A DNA stretch of 64,000 nt from Faecousia sp. (GTDB lineage Bacteria; Bacillota; Clostridia; Oscillospirales; Oscillospiraceae), in assembly GCA_045612705.1 (NCBI GenBank), contig JAZKZN010000028.1:1287-65286 (forward strand), read 5' to 3'. A program made the position numbers and the translations under genes. Every line of letters starts with the position of its first letter. Position 1 is the stretch's first letter. Below are positions 55,462 to 60,655 of the stretch, one piece after another. The notes below the pieces were generated by a model that ran no database searches, was not told the origin of the DNA, and saw nothing but the letters and a program-made list of their open reading frames with translations.

Positions 55462-56955
55462 ATGGCTAACTTTGTACCGCAGGCAGAGCTGCCTGTATCA
55501 GAGCAGGCTCAGATCCGCCGGGACAAGCTGGCGGCACTGCAGGCCGAAGGCCGCGACCCTTTTGTGCAGACTAAGTTTGATTTCAATGCAGACTCTGCCG
55601 GAATTAAGGCTGATTACGAAGGCTATGAGGGCAAGACCGTCCGCGTGGCCGGCCGCTTGATGAGCAAGCGCGGACAGGGCAAGGTTATGTTCTGCGATCT
55701 GCAGGACAGCACCGGCCGCATCCAGTTGTTTGTGAAGATCGACGAGCTTGGAGAAGAGGAGTACAATCGCTTCAAGAAGAACGATATTGGTGACATTTTG
55801 GGCGTGGAAGGTGAGGTCTTCAAGACTAAGACCGAGGAGATCTCCGTCCGGGCAAAGTCTGTCACACTGCTGTCCAAGTCCCTGCTGCCTCTGCCGGAAA
55901 AGTACCACGGTCTGACCGATAAGGAAATGCGTTTTCGTCAGAGATATGTGGATTTGATGGTGAATCCCGAAGTGAAGCAGAACTTCGTGATCCGCTCCAA
56001 GTTCATCAAGTTCATGCGCAACTATCTGGACAATATGAATTACATCGAGGTAGAGACCCCGGTGCTGAATACCATCGCCGGCGGCGCATCTGCCCGTCCT
56101 TTTATCACGCACCACAACACCCTGGACATTGATATGTATATGCGAATCGCCACCGAACTGCCTCTGAAGCGGCTGATCATCGGTGGTATGGACAGAGTGT
56201 ATGAGATCGGCCGTATCTTCCGTAATGAGGGTATGGATCCCAAGCATAACCCTGAGTTCACCTCTGTGGAGCTGTACCAGGCTTATGCGGATTTCCACGA
56301 TATGATGGATATTGCCGAGGGCATCATCTCCGGCGCTGCCAAGGAGATCCTGGGTACCTACGAAGTGGAGTGGATGGGCGAAAAGATCAATCTGGCTCCC
56401 GGCTGGCGCCGTATGACTATGGTGGAAGCTGTTAAGGAGTATGTGGGCATTGATTTCGGTGCAATTACCGATGATGCAGAGGCTGTTGCCGCTGCCAATG
56501 CCAAGGGTGTGGAACTGGCCGATGCCGCAGAAAAGACCTGGGGCAACGCTCTGTACGCCTGCTTCGATCAGCGGGTGGAGGAGCATCTGATCCAGCCTAC
56601 CTTCATCACAATGTACCCTGTTGAGGTCAGTCCTCTGACCAAGCGCAGCCCCTTGGACAGCCGCCTTACCGAGCGCTTCGAGCTGTTTATCTGCCACAGT
56701 GAGTTGGCCAACGCCTACTCCGAGCTGAACGACCCCATTGATCAGAGAGGCCGTTTCATGAAGCAGGTGGAGCAGCGTGAGCGCGGTGATGACGAGACCG
56801 AGATGCTGGACGAGGATTTCCTCACTGCTATGGAATACGGTATGCCTCCTACGGGTGGTATGGGCATTGGCATTGACCGCTGCGTTATGCTCCTGACTGG
56901 CAATGACACCATCCGCGAAGTCATCCTGTTCCCCACGATGAAGCCGTTGGACTAA
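55462..56955 (+). CDS. lysS: Lysine--tRNA ligase (class II)
   Basis: RQRYVDL, GGASARPF, FRNEGMD, YGMPPTGGMGIGIDR, VILFPTMKPLD. Confidence 0.97.
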   Translation: MANFVPQAELPVSEQAQIRRDKLAALQAEGRDPFVQTKFDFNADSAGIKADYEGYEGKTVRVAGRLMSKRGQGKVMFCDLQDSTGRIQLFVKIDELGEEEYNRFKKNDIGDILGVEGEVFKTKTEEISVRAKSVTLLSKSLLPLPEKYHGLTDKEMRFRQRYVDLMVNPEVKQNFVIRSKFIKFMRNYLDNMNYIEVETPVLNTIAGGASARPFITHHNTLDIDMYMRIATELPLKRLIIGGMDRVYEIGRIFRNEGMDPKHNPEFTSVELYQAYADFHDMMDIAEGIISGAAKEILGTYEVEWMGEKINLAPGWRRMTMVEAVKEYVGIDFGAITDDAEAVAAANAKGVELADAAEKTWGNALYACFDQRVEEHLIQPTFITMYPVEVSPLTKRSPLDSRLTERFELFICHSELANAYSELNDPIDQRGRFMKQVEQRERGDDETEMLDEDFLTAMEYGMPPTGGMGIGIDRCVMLLTGNDTIREVILFPTMKPLD

Positions 56956-56962
56956 AAATTTT

Positions 56963-56990
56963 AACACCCTATGGCAAATGCCATAGGGTG
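56963..56990. terminator. Terminator after the current lysS end
   Basis: acaccctatggc-aaat-gccatagggtgt. Confidence 0.85.
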
Positions 56991-57031
56991 TGTTTTATGT
57001 TATTAAACTGACCGACAAATTGGAATTTATT

Positions 57032-57349
57032 TCACTCGGAGAGGTCTTTGGCCATGACATGTTCAACGATTCCGTTGTCGTCGTAATAGACTATAACGTG
57101 TTTGTTTTTTTCGCTTACTAATTGCCAAATTTCACCCCAGAAGCCAGAAAGCTGACCGTCGGGTTCTCCCCAAGCATCCAATATGTCTTCTCGTGAAATA
57201 CCAATGAGTTTTTCGCCCAATTCCTCTTGGCTGCATTCGTTGACTTTTTCTAATGGTAAAATTTGTTTATTTGCATCTTCCTTTGTGTTACATGCACATA
57301 GACCAAGTACACAGACCAACGCTAAAACTAATGCTATCAACTTTTTCAT
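57032..57349 (-). CDS. Small lipoprotein (cassette 1 cargo)
   Basis: Lipoprotein signal MKKLIALVLALVCVLGLCAC; AAAGGAG RBS; AT-rich. Confidence 0.75.
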   Translation of the reverse strand: MKKLIALVLALVCVLGLCACNTKEDANKQILPLEKVNECSQEELGEKLIGISREDILDAWGEPDGQLSGFWGEIWQLVSEKNKHVIVYYDDNGIVEHVMAKDLSE

Positions 57350-57407
57350 ACAATCCCGCTCCTTTCTCAAATTCTTATTTATCGACCTAACTGCATTATA
57401 CCATTGC

Positions 57408-57436
57408 ATTATACCATATATCTTTCAAAACCGCAA
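57408..57436 (-). promoter_or_regulatory. sigmaA promoter for cassette 1 gene
   Basis: Minus strand TTGCGG-N17-TATAAT with extended TG. Confidence 0.65.
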
Positions 57437-57451
57437 TGTTTTGTAAAAATA

Positions 57452-57640
57452 TGAGTTTTGGGCCATTTTTAGACCATTTCAGAGGTATGATATATCCCGA
57501 AAAAGCAAGTTGAGGTAAGATAATTTTTGGGGTAAAAACGGTGTGCTTTTAGTGGGTAAGAAAAAGCACAAAAAAGCAAGATTAGGTAAGATATTTGCCG
57601 AGGCGATTTTAAGCCCTTTCATACTCCCCACGATGAAGCC
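57452..57640 (+). repeat. 189-bp direct repeat, copy 1 (att arm plus lysS-end core)
   Basis: Matches 58359-58547 with 7 mismatches by my count; internal AAAAAGCAAG-N3-AGGTAAGATA pair. Confidence 0.95.
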
Positions 57641-57654
57641 GTTAGATTAAAATG

Positions 57655-57688
57655 AAAGGACTATGACCGAAAAGTCATAGTCCTTTTT
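57655..57688. terminator. Terminator after lysS-end copy 1
   Basis: aaaggactatgac-cgaaaa-gtcatagtccttt. Confidence 0.85.
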
Positions 57689-57700
57689 GTTTGTAAAAAA

Positions 57701-58291
57701 TTAGATGGCACCCATTTCTTTCATTGCATTGATATATGTATCTGCTTCTCCGTTGGGGTTGGCTTGTTGGGTTGCCTCGATATCATACCAAGCACACTCA
57801 AGACCGTGAATGATGATAGGGAGTGGCTTTTTGAATTGGTTTTTAATAAAGCCTTCTTCTTGCAGTTTCTTGGCAACATTGGCGGCAACTCCAAGCAATT
57901 CATAATGACCGACAGGTCCCTTGCCGATGTAGTTGTAATCTTCATCATACATATTATCCATATCTTCAAAGCCTATGTTTTCAATGCCTTGCTCTGCATA
58001 CCATTTATACAAGGTTTCGGTGCATTCGTTAGGCTCGTCAATGTCAATTATGCTTGTTTCGTCCTGTCTCCAAAAAGCATAGTTCCATCTTTCTTCATCA
58101 AGTGGGCCTGCTCCCTCACAATCTGCCTCAGTGTTGTAACTTATTGCCCAAGTTGATACATTAGTGAAGTTTTTAAACTCGTATGCCTCGTTGGAATATA
58201 TAAAAAACGAAATGGCATAAATGCCATCCTCATTCCATTGGGATATTTCATATTTGACTTTTTCATACAAAATATGTTCAATATCAATCAT
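57701..58291 (-). CDS. Acidic hypothetical protein, possibly DUF4303/immunity-like (cassette 2 cargo)
   Basis: 196 aa, GGAGG RBS, YAISF...YNTE...ERWNYAFW; the family assignment is tentative. Confidence 0.65.
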   Translation of the reverse strand: MIDIEHILYEKVKYEISQWNEDGIYAISFFIYSNEAYEFKNFTNVSTWAISYNTEADCEGAGPLDEERWNYAFWRQDETSIIDIDEPNECTETLYKWYAEQGIENIGFEDMDNMYDEDYNYIGKGPVGHYELLGVAANVAKKLQEEGFIKNQFKKPLPIIIHGLECAWYDIEATQQANPNGEADTYINAMKEMGAI

Positions 58292-58321
58292 ATTATAACC
58301 TCCGTAATACTTGGCAACTTT

Positions 58322-58350
58322 ATTATATCACAAACCACTCAAAACAGCAA
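58322..58350 (-). promoter_or_regulatory. sigmaA promoter for cassette 2 gene
   Basis: Minus strand TTGCTG-N17-TATAAT. Confidence 0.65.
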
Positions 58351-58358
58351 CATTATAT

Positions 58359-58547
58359 TGAGTTTTGGGCCATTTTTAGACCATTTCAGACGTATGATAT
58401 ATCCCGAAAAAGTAAGTTGAGGTAAGATAATTTTTAGGGTAAAAACGGTGTGCTTTTAGTGGGTAAGAACAATCACAAAAAAGCAAGATTAGGCAAGATA
58501 TTTGCCGAGGCGATTTTAAGCCCTTTCATACTCCCCACAATGAAGCC
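58359..58547 (+). repeat. 189-bp direct repeat, copy 2
   Basis: 907 bp downstream of copy 1. Confidence 0.95.
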
Positions 58548-58565
58548 CCTTGCAGAGTAATATTA

Positions 58566-58603
58566 AGCCGAAAACGCCTATTTCAATGCGTTTTCGGCTT
58601 TTT
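58566..58603 (+). terminator. Terminator after lysS-end copy 2
   Basis: aagccgaaaacgc...gcgttttcggctt followed by a T-run. Confidence 0.8.
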
Positions 58604-58633
58604 GTTTATCCAAATTATTGCTTAAAAATGTGG

Positions 58634-58703
58634 TTTGCGACAGATTTACGACGAATGAGCAGGTCAACAGTCCTTGGAAATTACGACAATAAGGTGTCGC
58701 AAA
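58634..58703. repeat. Cluster of TT(A/G)CGAC(A/G) arm-type repeats, left end of cassette 3
   Basis: tttgcgaca 58634, tttacgacg 58645, ttacgaca 58681, inverted tgtcgcaaa 58695. Confidence 0.7.
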
Positions 58704-58833
58704 CGTAGCCTTAACAATGTACCAACAGAATTGCCGCTTACATATGAAATAGAACCGAATAGATGAAAAATAAGATTTTTCATAATTGAAATGCTATAAT
58801 TCAGTAAACACATTTACTGAAAGGACAGATTGT

Positions 58834-59562
58834 ATGTATGCCATAAGGACTGCTAATCTAACTAAAAAATATAAGGATACAGTTGCGGTAGACCAATTAA
58901 ATTTGCAGGTTAAAAAAGGCGAATTGTTTTCTCTGCTCGGTGTAAATGGTGCCGGTAAAACGACAACAATTAAAATGCTGTCCTGTCTTGCACAACCTAC
59001 AGGCGGAGATGCCTTTCTTAACGGAAAAAGCATTTGCAAAGATACAGCCGCTGTAAAATCGCTAATTGCCGTTTCTCCGCAGGAAACTGCGGTCGCATCC
59101 GGACTTTCGGTTCGGGAGAATCTTGAGCTGATGTGCGGGGTTCACGGCTTTACAAAAGACAAGCAAAATATGAAAATTGCAGAACTGACCGAACGACTCG
59201 GACTTAAATCTGTTATGAAGAAAAAGGCAGGTAAACTGTCGGGTGGTTGGCAACGCAGACTGAGTATTGCCATGGCACTGATCAGCGAACCGGAGATATT
59301 GTTTCTTGACGAGCCAACGCTTGGTCTTGATGTACTTGCCCGAAGCGACTTGTGGGATTTGATACGTTCTCTTAAAGGGAAGGTTACCATTATTCTGACT
59401 ACGCACTATATGGAAGAAGCGGAAGCGCTCTCTGATCGTATCGCGATTATGAAAGAGGGAAAACTACTGATTTGTGATACTGCTGATAAGATAAAAGAAG
59501 CGGCAGGTACGGACAGTTTTGAGCAAGCCTTTGTGCGTATTGTTAAGGGGGTGGCAGAATGA
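58834..59562 (+). CDS. ABC-2 type exporter ATP-binding protein (cassette 3 cargo)
   Basis: GVNGAGKTT, LSGGWQRR, LDEPTLGLD, TTHYMEEAE. Confidence 0.92.
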   Translation: MYAIRTANLTKKYKDTVAVDQLNLQVKKGELFSLLGVNGAGKTTTIKMLSCLAQPTGGDAFLNGKSICKDTAAVKSLIAVSPQETAVASGLSVRENLELMCGVHGFTKDKQNMKIAELTERLGLKSVMKKKAGKLSGGWQRRLSIAMALISEPEILFLDEPTLGLDVLARSDLWDLIRSLKGKVTIILTTHYMEEAEALSDRIAIMKEGKLLICDTADKIKEAAGTDSFEQAFVRIVKGVAE

Positions 59563-60287
59563 GAATGCTGATATTTGCAAATAGAAACACAAAAGAAATA
59601 TTACGGGATCCGTTGAATTTGTTCTTTGGGCTCGGTTTTCCACTCGTTCTGATGCTATTGCTCAGTGCTATACAAGCAAATATCCCAGTAGAGCTGTTTG
59701 AAATACAACACCTGACTCCGGGTATAACCGTTTTCGGTTTGGCATTTGTGACATTGTTTTCTGCAACCATTATCGCAAAAGACAGAGGTAGTTCATTGCT
59801 TCAGCGTTTATATACCACGCCACTTACTCCAATGGATTTCATTCTCGGTTATACGCTGCCTATTATTCCAGTTTCTGTCGCTCAATGCGCTATCTGCTAT
59901 ATTGCGGCAATCTTTCTTGGCCTAAATATTAAGGTAAATATTTTATATGCTGTCGTATTCATTATACCTGTATCCATTCTCTACATTGCGTTAGGACTCC
60001 TTTGCGGAAGTGTATTGAATGATAAGCAGGTAGGCGGGATTTGTGGTGCTTTGCTTACCAACCTTTCAGCATGGTTGTCTGGCATTTGGTTTGATCTTGA
60101 CCTTGTAGGAGGTGCTTTCAAGAAGATAGCATACACACTTCCGTTTGTTCACGCAGTAGAGATGGAACGTGCGGTGCTCGCAGGAGATTATTCAGCAGTT
60201 TTCCCTCATCTTTGGTGGGTGCTTGGATATGCCGCTATTCTGCTCGTGTTAGCGGTGCTGCTATTCTTGCGACAAATGAAGAAATAG
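59559..60287 (+). CDS. ABC-2 type exporter permease (cassette 3 cargo)
   Basis: LRDP, six TM segments, LSGIWF; ATGA overlap with the ATPase. Confidence 0.88.
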   Translation: MRMLIFANRNTKEILRDPLNLFFGLGFPLVLMLLLSAIQANIPVELFEIQHLTPGITVFGLAFVTLFSATIIAKDRGSSLLQRLYTTPLTPMDFILGYTLPIIPVSVAQCAICYIAAIFLGLNIKVNILYAVVFIIPVSILYIALGLLCGSVLNDKQVGGICGALLTNLSAWLSGIWFDLDLVGGAFKKIAYTLPFVHAVEMERAVLAGDYSAVFPHLWWVLGYAAILLVLAVLLFLRQMKK

Positions 60288-60346
60288 TATTTATATAGTT
60301 TAGGGGATATGTATTTCTTTGTTGGACAATGAAAACGCCCTCGTTT

Positions 60347-60387
60347 TTTACGACAATTCTTACGACAAACCCAATAAAGTTATGACA
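60347..60387. repeat. Cluster of TTA(C/T)GACA arm-type repeats, right end of cassette 3
   Basis: tttacgaca 60347, cttacgaca 60359, gttatgaca 60379. Confidence 0.7.
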
Positions 60388-60485
60388 TTCTATGTGAGGT
60401 TATGTACTTTAATGAAAACGGGTTGGATTAACGAAGTCAGGAAATGAGAGGTTAAATCAATGTATAAGACATACTCAGTGGAAAT

Positions 60486-60510
60486 CCCCAGGATGAAGCC
60501 GTTGGATTGA
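60486..60510 (+). repeat. Fourth lysS-end copy (probable displaced original 3' end, attR)
   Basis: ccccaggatgaagccgttggattga reads P-R-M-K-P-L-D-stop; hairpin gcccctg...caggggc follows. Confidence 0.8.
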
Positions 60511-60655
60511 TGTGAATTACGCCCCTGCGTATCATGAATACACAGGGGCATTTTCGTATAAGTATGCAAAAAGAAAGACGTAGTTTCTGGTCCGTCAAGA
60601 CCCTTGCGAAAAGTAAAGTGTTGTGGTAAACTGAAAGAAAAAGGAGGTGGCTTTG

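Follow-up and report, generated by a model that had tools for sequence, protein, structure and literature searches.

A stretch of 64,000 nucleotides from Faecousia sp. (assembly GCA_045612705.1, contig JAZKZN010000028.1; hereafter the window, whose numbering is used throughout) was found to carry, directly downstream of the lysyl-tRNA synthetase gene lysS, three small units that are bounded by four copies of the 3′ end of this gene and encode no recombinase. We consider it probable that these units arose by tandem accretion of three non-autonomous elements at the attB site of lysS through the action of a tyrosine integrase, and that two of them belong to a family of cassettes with a single open reading frame (ORF). 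The genome is a metagenome bin of 1.69 Mb in 59 contigs, with a completeness of 87%.

Four copies of the lysS 3′ end delimit three units

A repeat search of the window revealed that the core, which follows the pattern TCCCCA, two variable bases and ATGAAGCC and continues to the stop codon, starts at positions 56930, 57625, 58532 and 60485. The spacings between consecutive copies (695, 907 and 1953 bp) delimit units 1, 2 and 3, and the C-termini encoded by the four copies are, in order, PTMKPLD-stop, PTMKPLD-stop, PTMKPLAE-stop and PRMKPLD-stop. A hairpin comes after every copy, different in each case, and those at 56964-56991 and 57654-57687 pass a terminator scan. This fourfold recurrence, with the same spacings, C-termini and individual hairpins, had been described in a previous analysis based on the letters of the DNA (the sequence-only reading), and the repeat search reproduced it. 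No further copy matching the strict core pattern was present in the 1.69-Mb bin. The features that frame the array are as follows.

55462..56955, + strand: lysS, class II lysyl-tRNA synthetase of 497 aa (Pfam tRNA-synt_2, 3.6e-91, plus an OB-fold anticodon-binding domain); its last 26 nt are core copy 1
56930..56955, + strand: core copy 1, attL-type, the working lysS 3′ end; holds the TTCCCNACNATGA repeat published for lysS-targeting islands (PMC8301612)
57625..57650, + strand: core copy 2, from the repeat search
58532..58560, + strand: core copy 3, ending PLAE-stop, like the lysS of genome G414, where an element resembling unit 3 abuts the gene
60485..60510, + strand: core copy 4, attR-type, from the repeat search; GC content climbs to the host level just beyond
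60521..60548, + strand: GC-rich hairpin, read by eye

Core copy 4 is probably the original end of lysS, and the hairpin at 60521-60548 is probably the native lysS terminator. The genes greA and lysS lie upstream of the array and a metallophosphoesterase gene lies downstream. GC content across 56950-60550 ranges from 0.31 to 0.49, in comparison with 0.52 to 0.59 on both sides. Analysis of ORFs and Pfam domains detected no integrase, excisionase, relaxase or conjugation genes in the three units; the only Pfam matches within them correspond to an ABC ATPase and an ABC-2 permease of unit 3, no family being matched by the lipoprotein of unit 1 or by the 196-aa acidic protein of unit 2. The genome contains eight matches to the tyrosine-recombinase domain PF00589, none of them on the contig of the window. 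The previous description of AT-rich units with cargo only and without recombinase was thus borne out by composition, ORFs and Pfam.

A direct repeat of 189 nt, 96% identical, is located at 57452-57640 and 58359-58547, directly to the left of cores 2 and 3. Shared sequences of this kind raise the question of whether strains carrying different single cassettes were stitched together in the assembly through a common arm and core. The fragmentation and incompleteness of the bin, the frequent breakage of relatives' contigs just after lysS and the failure to find the source run among public runs would fit such an artefact, but the two arms of the window differ at 7 positions and arrays of several units were found in independent assemblies (L058, G422 and G425), so that we regard misassembly as very improbable.

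Units 1 and 2 share a common backbone

Units 1 and 2 are built according to the same plan, as described in the following features.

56964..56991, no strand: left end of unit 1, predicted two-way terminator hairpin of the ACACCCTATGGC type (inverted-repeat and terminator scans)
57013..57028, no strand: trailer half of the 16-nt inverted repeat bracketing the unit 1 ORF (alignment of cassettes; also in L056, L058 and L063)
57032..57349, - strand: unit 1 cargo, lipoprotein of 105 aa with a signal peptide and lipobox Cys; only weak BLIP/BamE-like leads
57369..57384, no strand: leader half of the inverted repeat of unit 1, pairing with 57013..57028
57395..57436, - strand: predicted promoter of unit 1, TTGCGG, 17 nt, TGGTATAAT; same position in 12 cassettes
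57452..57624, + strand: arm of unit 1, of the P-arm type, with two distal repeats (GGCCATTT / GACCATTT) and several GGTA[AT]GA repeats
57654..57687, no strand: left end of unit 2, predicted two-way terminator hairpin of the AAAGGACTATGAC type; same type in L052, L053, L062 and L065
57701..58291, - strand: unit 2 cargo, acidic protein of 196 aa, member of a large unnamed Clostridia family
58322..58350, - strand: predicted promoter of unit 2, TTGCTG, 17 nt, TGTGATATAAT (cassette alignment)
58359..58531, + strand: arm of unit 2, 96% identical to the unit 1 arm

Read on the cargo strand, the order of a cassette is distal arm repeats, TTGCNG followed after 17 nt by an extended TATAAT, a short leader with a ribosome-binding site, one ORF, a hairpin and the core. 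The arm consists of about 190 nt of direct repeats, namely two distal repeats and, after them, several GGTA[AT]GAT-like repeats. The layout mirrors that of arms adjacent to integrase genes, in which distal direct repeats are followed by several ATATGAT/GGTAAGAT-like repeats. As single-stranded DNA the arm showed no significant fold (z = -0.78 versus shuffles), and a search of Rfam over the region gave a chance-level match only. In unit 1, a 13-bp tandem duplication (TGCATTATACCAT x2, 57392-57417) doubles the -10 box of the promoter.

The backbone recurs in other genomes with unrelated cargo

Units that share the arm/promoter/hairpin backbone of units 1 and 2 are referred to as family-1. A scan for the arm-core junction identified 7 further species-level genomes, including ones from cattle, buffalo and deer caecum sources; 7 metagenome contigs matched the distal-arm pattern, and a sample of the order added family-1 arms in G425 and G725. 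In all, some 10 species-level genomes besides that of the window carry the backbone, in most cases behind lysS. A search with the arm in a sample of 400 genomes of the bacterial family gave matches to lysS ends only. No match to arm DNA was obtained in plasmid and phage collections, nor were the two arm patterns found in viral contigs. Units of 603-1052 bp are situated directly behind lysS in L052, L053, L058, L062 and L065, and the unit 1-type hairpin also trails the cores in L040, L056, L063 and G416. Content, number and order of units behind lysS varied among relatives when their lysS-downstream regions were compared, as the sequence-only reading had anticipated.

The -35 and -10 boxes occupy a fixed position relative to the arm in 12 cassettes with unrelated ORFs. 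The products of cassette ORFs include lipoproteins, a hexapeptide acetyltransferase, an S-adenosylmethionine methyltransferase, a TM1586-type nitroreductase-like protein, an AAA_18 kinase, a zinc-ribbon protein and membrane proteins; a GNAT gene and a DUF4279 gene are located just past arm-core junctions in two arrays, and in L061 an ORF of the UDG family abuts the arm on the opposite strand. The backbone is common to hosts with only 66-84% identity between their lysS genes. A lipoprotein cassette shows 83% identity between two hosts in which lysS aligns at 76%, and over a short stretch only. On the right side of ATGAAG, the sequence of the core differs according to the host or the element that comes next, as would be expected if the crossover took place in the 13-bp stretch published for lysS-targeting islands.

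The DNA of the unit 2 ORF is 83-85% identical to that of the same gene in 8 contigs lacking a core. In 6 of these 8 the similarity extends only about 10 nt beyond the ORF on both sides; in L104 and L105 it continues through the downstream hairpin. In L098 (333-8591) the closest homologues follow a 2156-aa surface protein with Listeria-Bacteroides repeats and a 293-aa protein, a layout that recalls a toxin-immunity locus, and for the unit 2 protein a DUF4303 lead, at 27% share, was obtained from the atlas. These traits are suggestive of an immunity-type protein.

The same inverted repeat of 16-21 nt, GAYAAAYTKGAATTT, brackets four unrelated ORFs (unit 1, L056, L058 and L063), with matches ranging from 13/16 to 17/21. 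It could delimit an inner exchange module, or it could allow pairing of the 5′ and 3′ ends of the mRNA. The former possibility leads to a different explanation of the diversity of cargo, in which ORF modules bounded by inverted repeats, similar to mobile insertion cassettes or miniature inverted-repeat transposable elements, enter a fixed spot of the backbone, or homologous recombination between conserved arms reshuffles the arrays, integrase traffic being minor. Arms that are 83-96% identical would indeed be substrates for homologous exchange. The inverted repeat is missing, however, from the subgroup formed by unit 2, L052, L053, L062, L065 and G422, no target-site duplication was seen around the inner module, and no transposase with matching ends turned up, although no search aimed at transposases was made. 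Moreover, the core duplications present at every unit boundary would still need site-specific recombination. We therefore consider inner exchange improbable as the principal mechanism.

An older array behind lysS was observed in G425 (G425:C32, L155, 4690-7100), with two short-form family-1 arms and a serine-recombinase fragment. Its cores are decayed, one C being lost and CCCC being changed to TTTT, and a TTACGAC left-arm piece is fused to a family-1 hairpin with no core in between.

lysS is a major integration hot spot in relatives

Integration at the 3′ end of lysS has been reported for streptococcal integrative and conjugative elements (ICEs; PMC4701971) and for enterococcal vanD islands, which leave 13-bp repeats, TTCCCAACAATGA or TTCCCCACAATGA, at this position (PMC8301612). 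The published 13-bp repeat (TTCCCNACAATGA) corresponds to the left part of the core in the window. The four cores and this known target agree with the proposal of the sequence-only reading that att-flanked units lacking a recombinase have accreted at the lysS 3′ end.

In the genus of the window, nearly every lysS gene is directly followed by foreign DNA, which in congeners has its own short direct repeats in each case (TTGACAACAA, TTTACCAA, TATAAGAA or TTTACGACA); in some congeners another core is found farther downstream, and many contigs end at this very place. Elements that encode an integrase are also present at this site. In G422, the element directly behind lysS measures 28 kb and ends in the gene of a 452-aa integrase; after it come a core, a family-1 cassette, a second core and an ABC pair. 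The integrase contains the Tn916 arm-binding domain PF02920 and the catalytic domain PF00589, and homologues were found in 60 of the 400 genomes sampled from the bacterial family. Among 30 Tn916-type integrase loci that were fetched, 21 adjoin a lysS-type core, with arm repeats particular to each lineage, which indicates that lysS is a major hot spot for a diversified clade of integrases. Two more types of arm repeat, CTACGCCA and TTTACCCCAG, were seen at lysS cores (L064 after 864; L063 2130-2290). The variety of arm repeats at lysS cores points to many integrase specificities acting on one target.

Two other types of recombination were considered and dropped. Hijacking of the Xer/dif type was set aside because the core, judged by eye, does not resemble the dif consensus, and a serine recombinase was discarded since a long shared core and arm repeats are features of tyrosine integrases.

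Unit 3 and the contribution of decay

Unit 3 differs from the two preceding units in its arms and cargo, as listed below.

58565..58600, no strand: left-end hairpin of unit 3, a perfect 13-nt inverted repeat with a T run
58646..58687, + strand: left arm of unit 3 with two TTACGAC repeats, the same as in G414
58822..59562, + strand: unit 3 cargo, ABC transporter ATPase (Pfam ABC_tran, 2.1e-31)
59559..60287, + strand: unit 3 cargo, ABC-2 type permease (Pfam ABC2_membrane, 1e-22)
60340..60484, + strand: right arm of unit 3 with two TTACGAC repeats at 60348-60366; layout as in the integrase-adjacent arm of L144

The same element is located directly behind lysS in G414, in a longer form that contains a TetR gene and whose ends match those of unit 3; its right end is fused to another element. 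With respect to the G414 version, unit 3 lacks about 700 bp, including TetR. Judged from its sequence, unit 3 appears to be an ordinary decayed element with arms of the TTACGAC type, that is, a cis-mobilizable element (CIME) that has lost its TetR regulator.

These observations bring up the question of whether the three units might all be classical CIMEs, left behind at lysS by independent deletions in larger ICEs or integrative and mobilizable elements (IMEs), with no dedicated cassette family. Decay is the usual origin of att-flanked elements without integrase (PMC5704250, PMC7563491), it fits unit 3, and the arrays of G414 and G425 show that deletions fuse neighbouring elements and that cores decay. 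Independent deletions, however, are expected to have differing endpoints, yet the 12 family-1 cassettes keep the arm and the position of the promoter with unrelated ORFs directly behind, and leader and trailer are also common to several cassettes. Furthermore, no larger element with a family-1 arm was found among about 20 loci. Decay alone is therefore an unlikely explanation for the whole array. The view that the units look purpose-built rather than decayed, put forward in the sequence-only reading, is favoured for units 1 and 2 by this constancy and by the end of similarity about 10 nt past the unit 2 ORF, and it does not apply to unit 3.

Proposed mechanism and mobility

On these grounds we return to tandem accretion by a tyrosine integrase. 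In the proposed mechanism, the lysS 3′ end would serve as attB for a large clade of Tn916-type tyrosine integrases, and the three non-autonomous elements would have accreted by site-specific recombination within the approximately 13-bp TTCCCNACNATGA, each unit bringing a replacement gene end and its own terminator. The backbone of units 1 and 2, of about 330 bp, would be contiguous in the circular form and comprise the promoter, the P-type arm of about 190 nt, the core and the terminator hairpin; one ORF together with its ribosome-binding site would lie between promoter and terminator and vary from cassette to cassette. Since no unit contains a recombinase, only an integrase acting in trans or cis-mobilization could move the units. 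Two routes may thus be envisaged: the units would be moved in trans by a cognate integrase, or a newly arriving ICE or IME would integrate alongside and the resulting composite would be excised and transferred. The analysis shows how the units are built, that they recur, that cargo and arrays vary, and that elements with an integrase occupy this site in relatives; from this we infer that recombination took place, which integrase was involved and in what order the units were inserted. The action of integrases in trans, also proposed in the sequence-only reading, would belong to the same scheme.

Several results weigh against this mechanism. On the hairpin side of family-1 cassettes, arm repeats are not evident. 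Elements integrated at lysS that encode an integrase, which the sequence-only reading had suggested looking for, do occur in relatives such as G422, but an integrase with family-1 arm repeats beside it was found in no locus examined. The bin of the window contains no close homologue of the G422 integrase, G444 has no tyrosine-recombinase match at all, and G425 and G725 (96-97% complete) lack a Tn916-type arm-binding domain. No integrase shared among the arm-bearing genomes was found. The lack of a suitable integrase in these hosts implies that most cassettes reside in genomes unable to move them and are mostly stranded. No single public run contains more than 23% of the sampled words of the window, and no circle junction was seen. 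An empty site was sought through the downstream metallophosphoesterase gene and none could be demonstrated, because flanking gene order is not conserved among the available relatives; its homologues in the genus share about 65% identity and are not beside lysS. Finally, all the genomes are metagenome bins, from which mobile DNA may be missing and whose arrays are uncheckable against reads.

Logan contigs matching the window are short and represent many different organisms. Some of them, in two studies, pass from 56960/56961 straight to 57655/57656 and leave out exactly unit 1; these joints were dismissed, as they rest on 24-30 letters within the repeated core and prove nothing. A single Logan record, a contig that "goes back 266", may represent a cargo-free backbone.

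The interest of the cassettes depends on demonstrating their mobility. If single cassettes move, gut Clostridia would be able to exchange one gene at a time, ready for expression, at a safe site of the chromosome and without the cost of a whole mobile element, through a route of gene flow missed by ICE, IME and integron finders. The backbone is small, defined and amenable to testing, and it could be used as a vector of natural origin for integrating one gene into organisms in which genetic engineering is difficult. Should the cassettes be immobile, the locus would constitute a clear example of an integration hot spot that gathers stranded cargo.

Comparison with known systems

By operational definition the units are CIMEs, the closest known kind of element. 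As in CIMEs, they are flanked by att-type direct repeats of the target gene end, lack integrase and transfer genes, lie in tandem at one site and contain cargo, and the autonomous element is nearer to the target gene, as in G422. Tandem accretion is known for CIMEs (PMC7563491), as are excision and transfer together with an adjacent incoming ICE or IME (PMC5704250); the putative IME followed by a cassette in G422 would provide the arrangement required for such cis-mobilization. Published CIMEs, however, have been interpreted as products of decay measuring 1.2-13 kb or as gene-free pieces of 130-220 bp, whereas the family of units 1 and 2 measures 0.6-1.05 kb and presents exactly one ORF in a promoter-arm-core-terminator backbone conserved across hosts. 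An origin by deletion from an ICE or IME is supported in part for unit 3, with its longer version in G414 and its arms as in L144, while no larger relative of units 1 and 2 was found.

ICE_SsuGZ1_lysS and its relatives (PMC4701971) and the vanD islands Tn6711-Tn6713 (PMC8301612) share with the window the target and, on comparison with Table 3 of PMC8301612, a short repeat in the last lysS codons; tyrosine-integrase chemistry is implied. The published elements are of 100-kb scale or conjugative and carry their own integrase, whereas the units of the window encode none.

Likeness to integrons was proposed in the sequence-only reading. Both indeed have small and mostly single-gene units with repeated recombination sites at a single platform, and varied cargo whose function is unknown or modifying. 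In contrast to integrons, the window has neither a platform integrase nor attI, every cassette has its own predicted -35/-10 pair, and the sites are attP-like, with arm repeats and a core shared with a housekeeping gene, instead of folded attC sites. The comparison fails each defining test of an integron and can be used as an analogy only.

The rAID-1 arrays of Bacteroidales (10.1101/471110) and the tycheposon islands of Prochlorococcus (10.1101/2020.12.28.424599) are parallels in outcome, with repeated integration at one site, skewed GC content, repeated intergenic sequence and remnants delimited by incomplete target-gene copies. Unlike the window, rAID-1 arrays keep a conserved XerD-type recombinase, and tycheposons carry integrases and target tRNA genes; neither has been described as a one-ORF expression cassette. 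In the literature searched, we found no description of a recurrent cassette below about 1 kb with one ORF that is precisely replaced, a fixed promoter and a complete arm. These comparisons allow a broader and more tentative suggestion, which we hold to be possible although somewhat short of an even chance: Oscillospirales-type gut Clostridia might possess purpose-built one-ORF expression cassettes (fixed promoter, swappable ORF that in one subgroup has an inverted repeat around it, terminator and full attP-type arm), with lysS as landing pad and Tn916-type integrases acting in trans, which would be functionally a second, independently evolved cassette-array system besides integrons.

Additional observations at lysS

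In L048 (G415) and L051 (G412), the lysS frame continues beyond the usual stop codon and lengthens the C-terminus by about 100 aa or more, the ORF exceeding 600 aa and running off the contig end. A second family of one-gene mini-units, with TATAAGAA arm repeats on both sides, was also observed at lysS, in L042/G416 (2106-2888, 782 bp) and in L058 (5549-6478, 928 bp).

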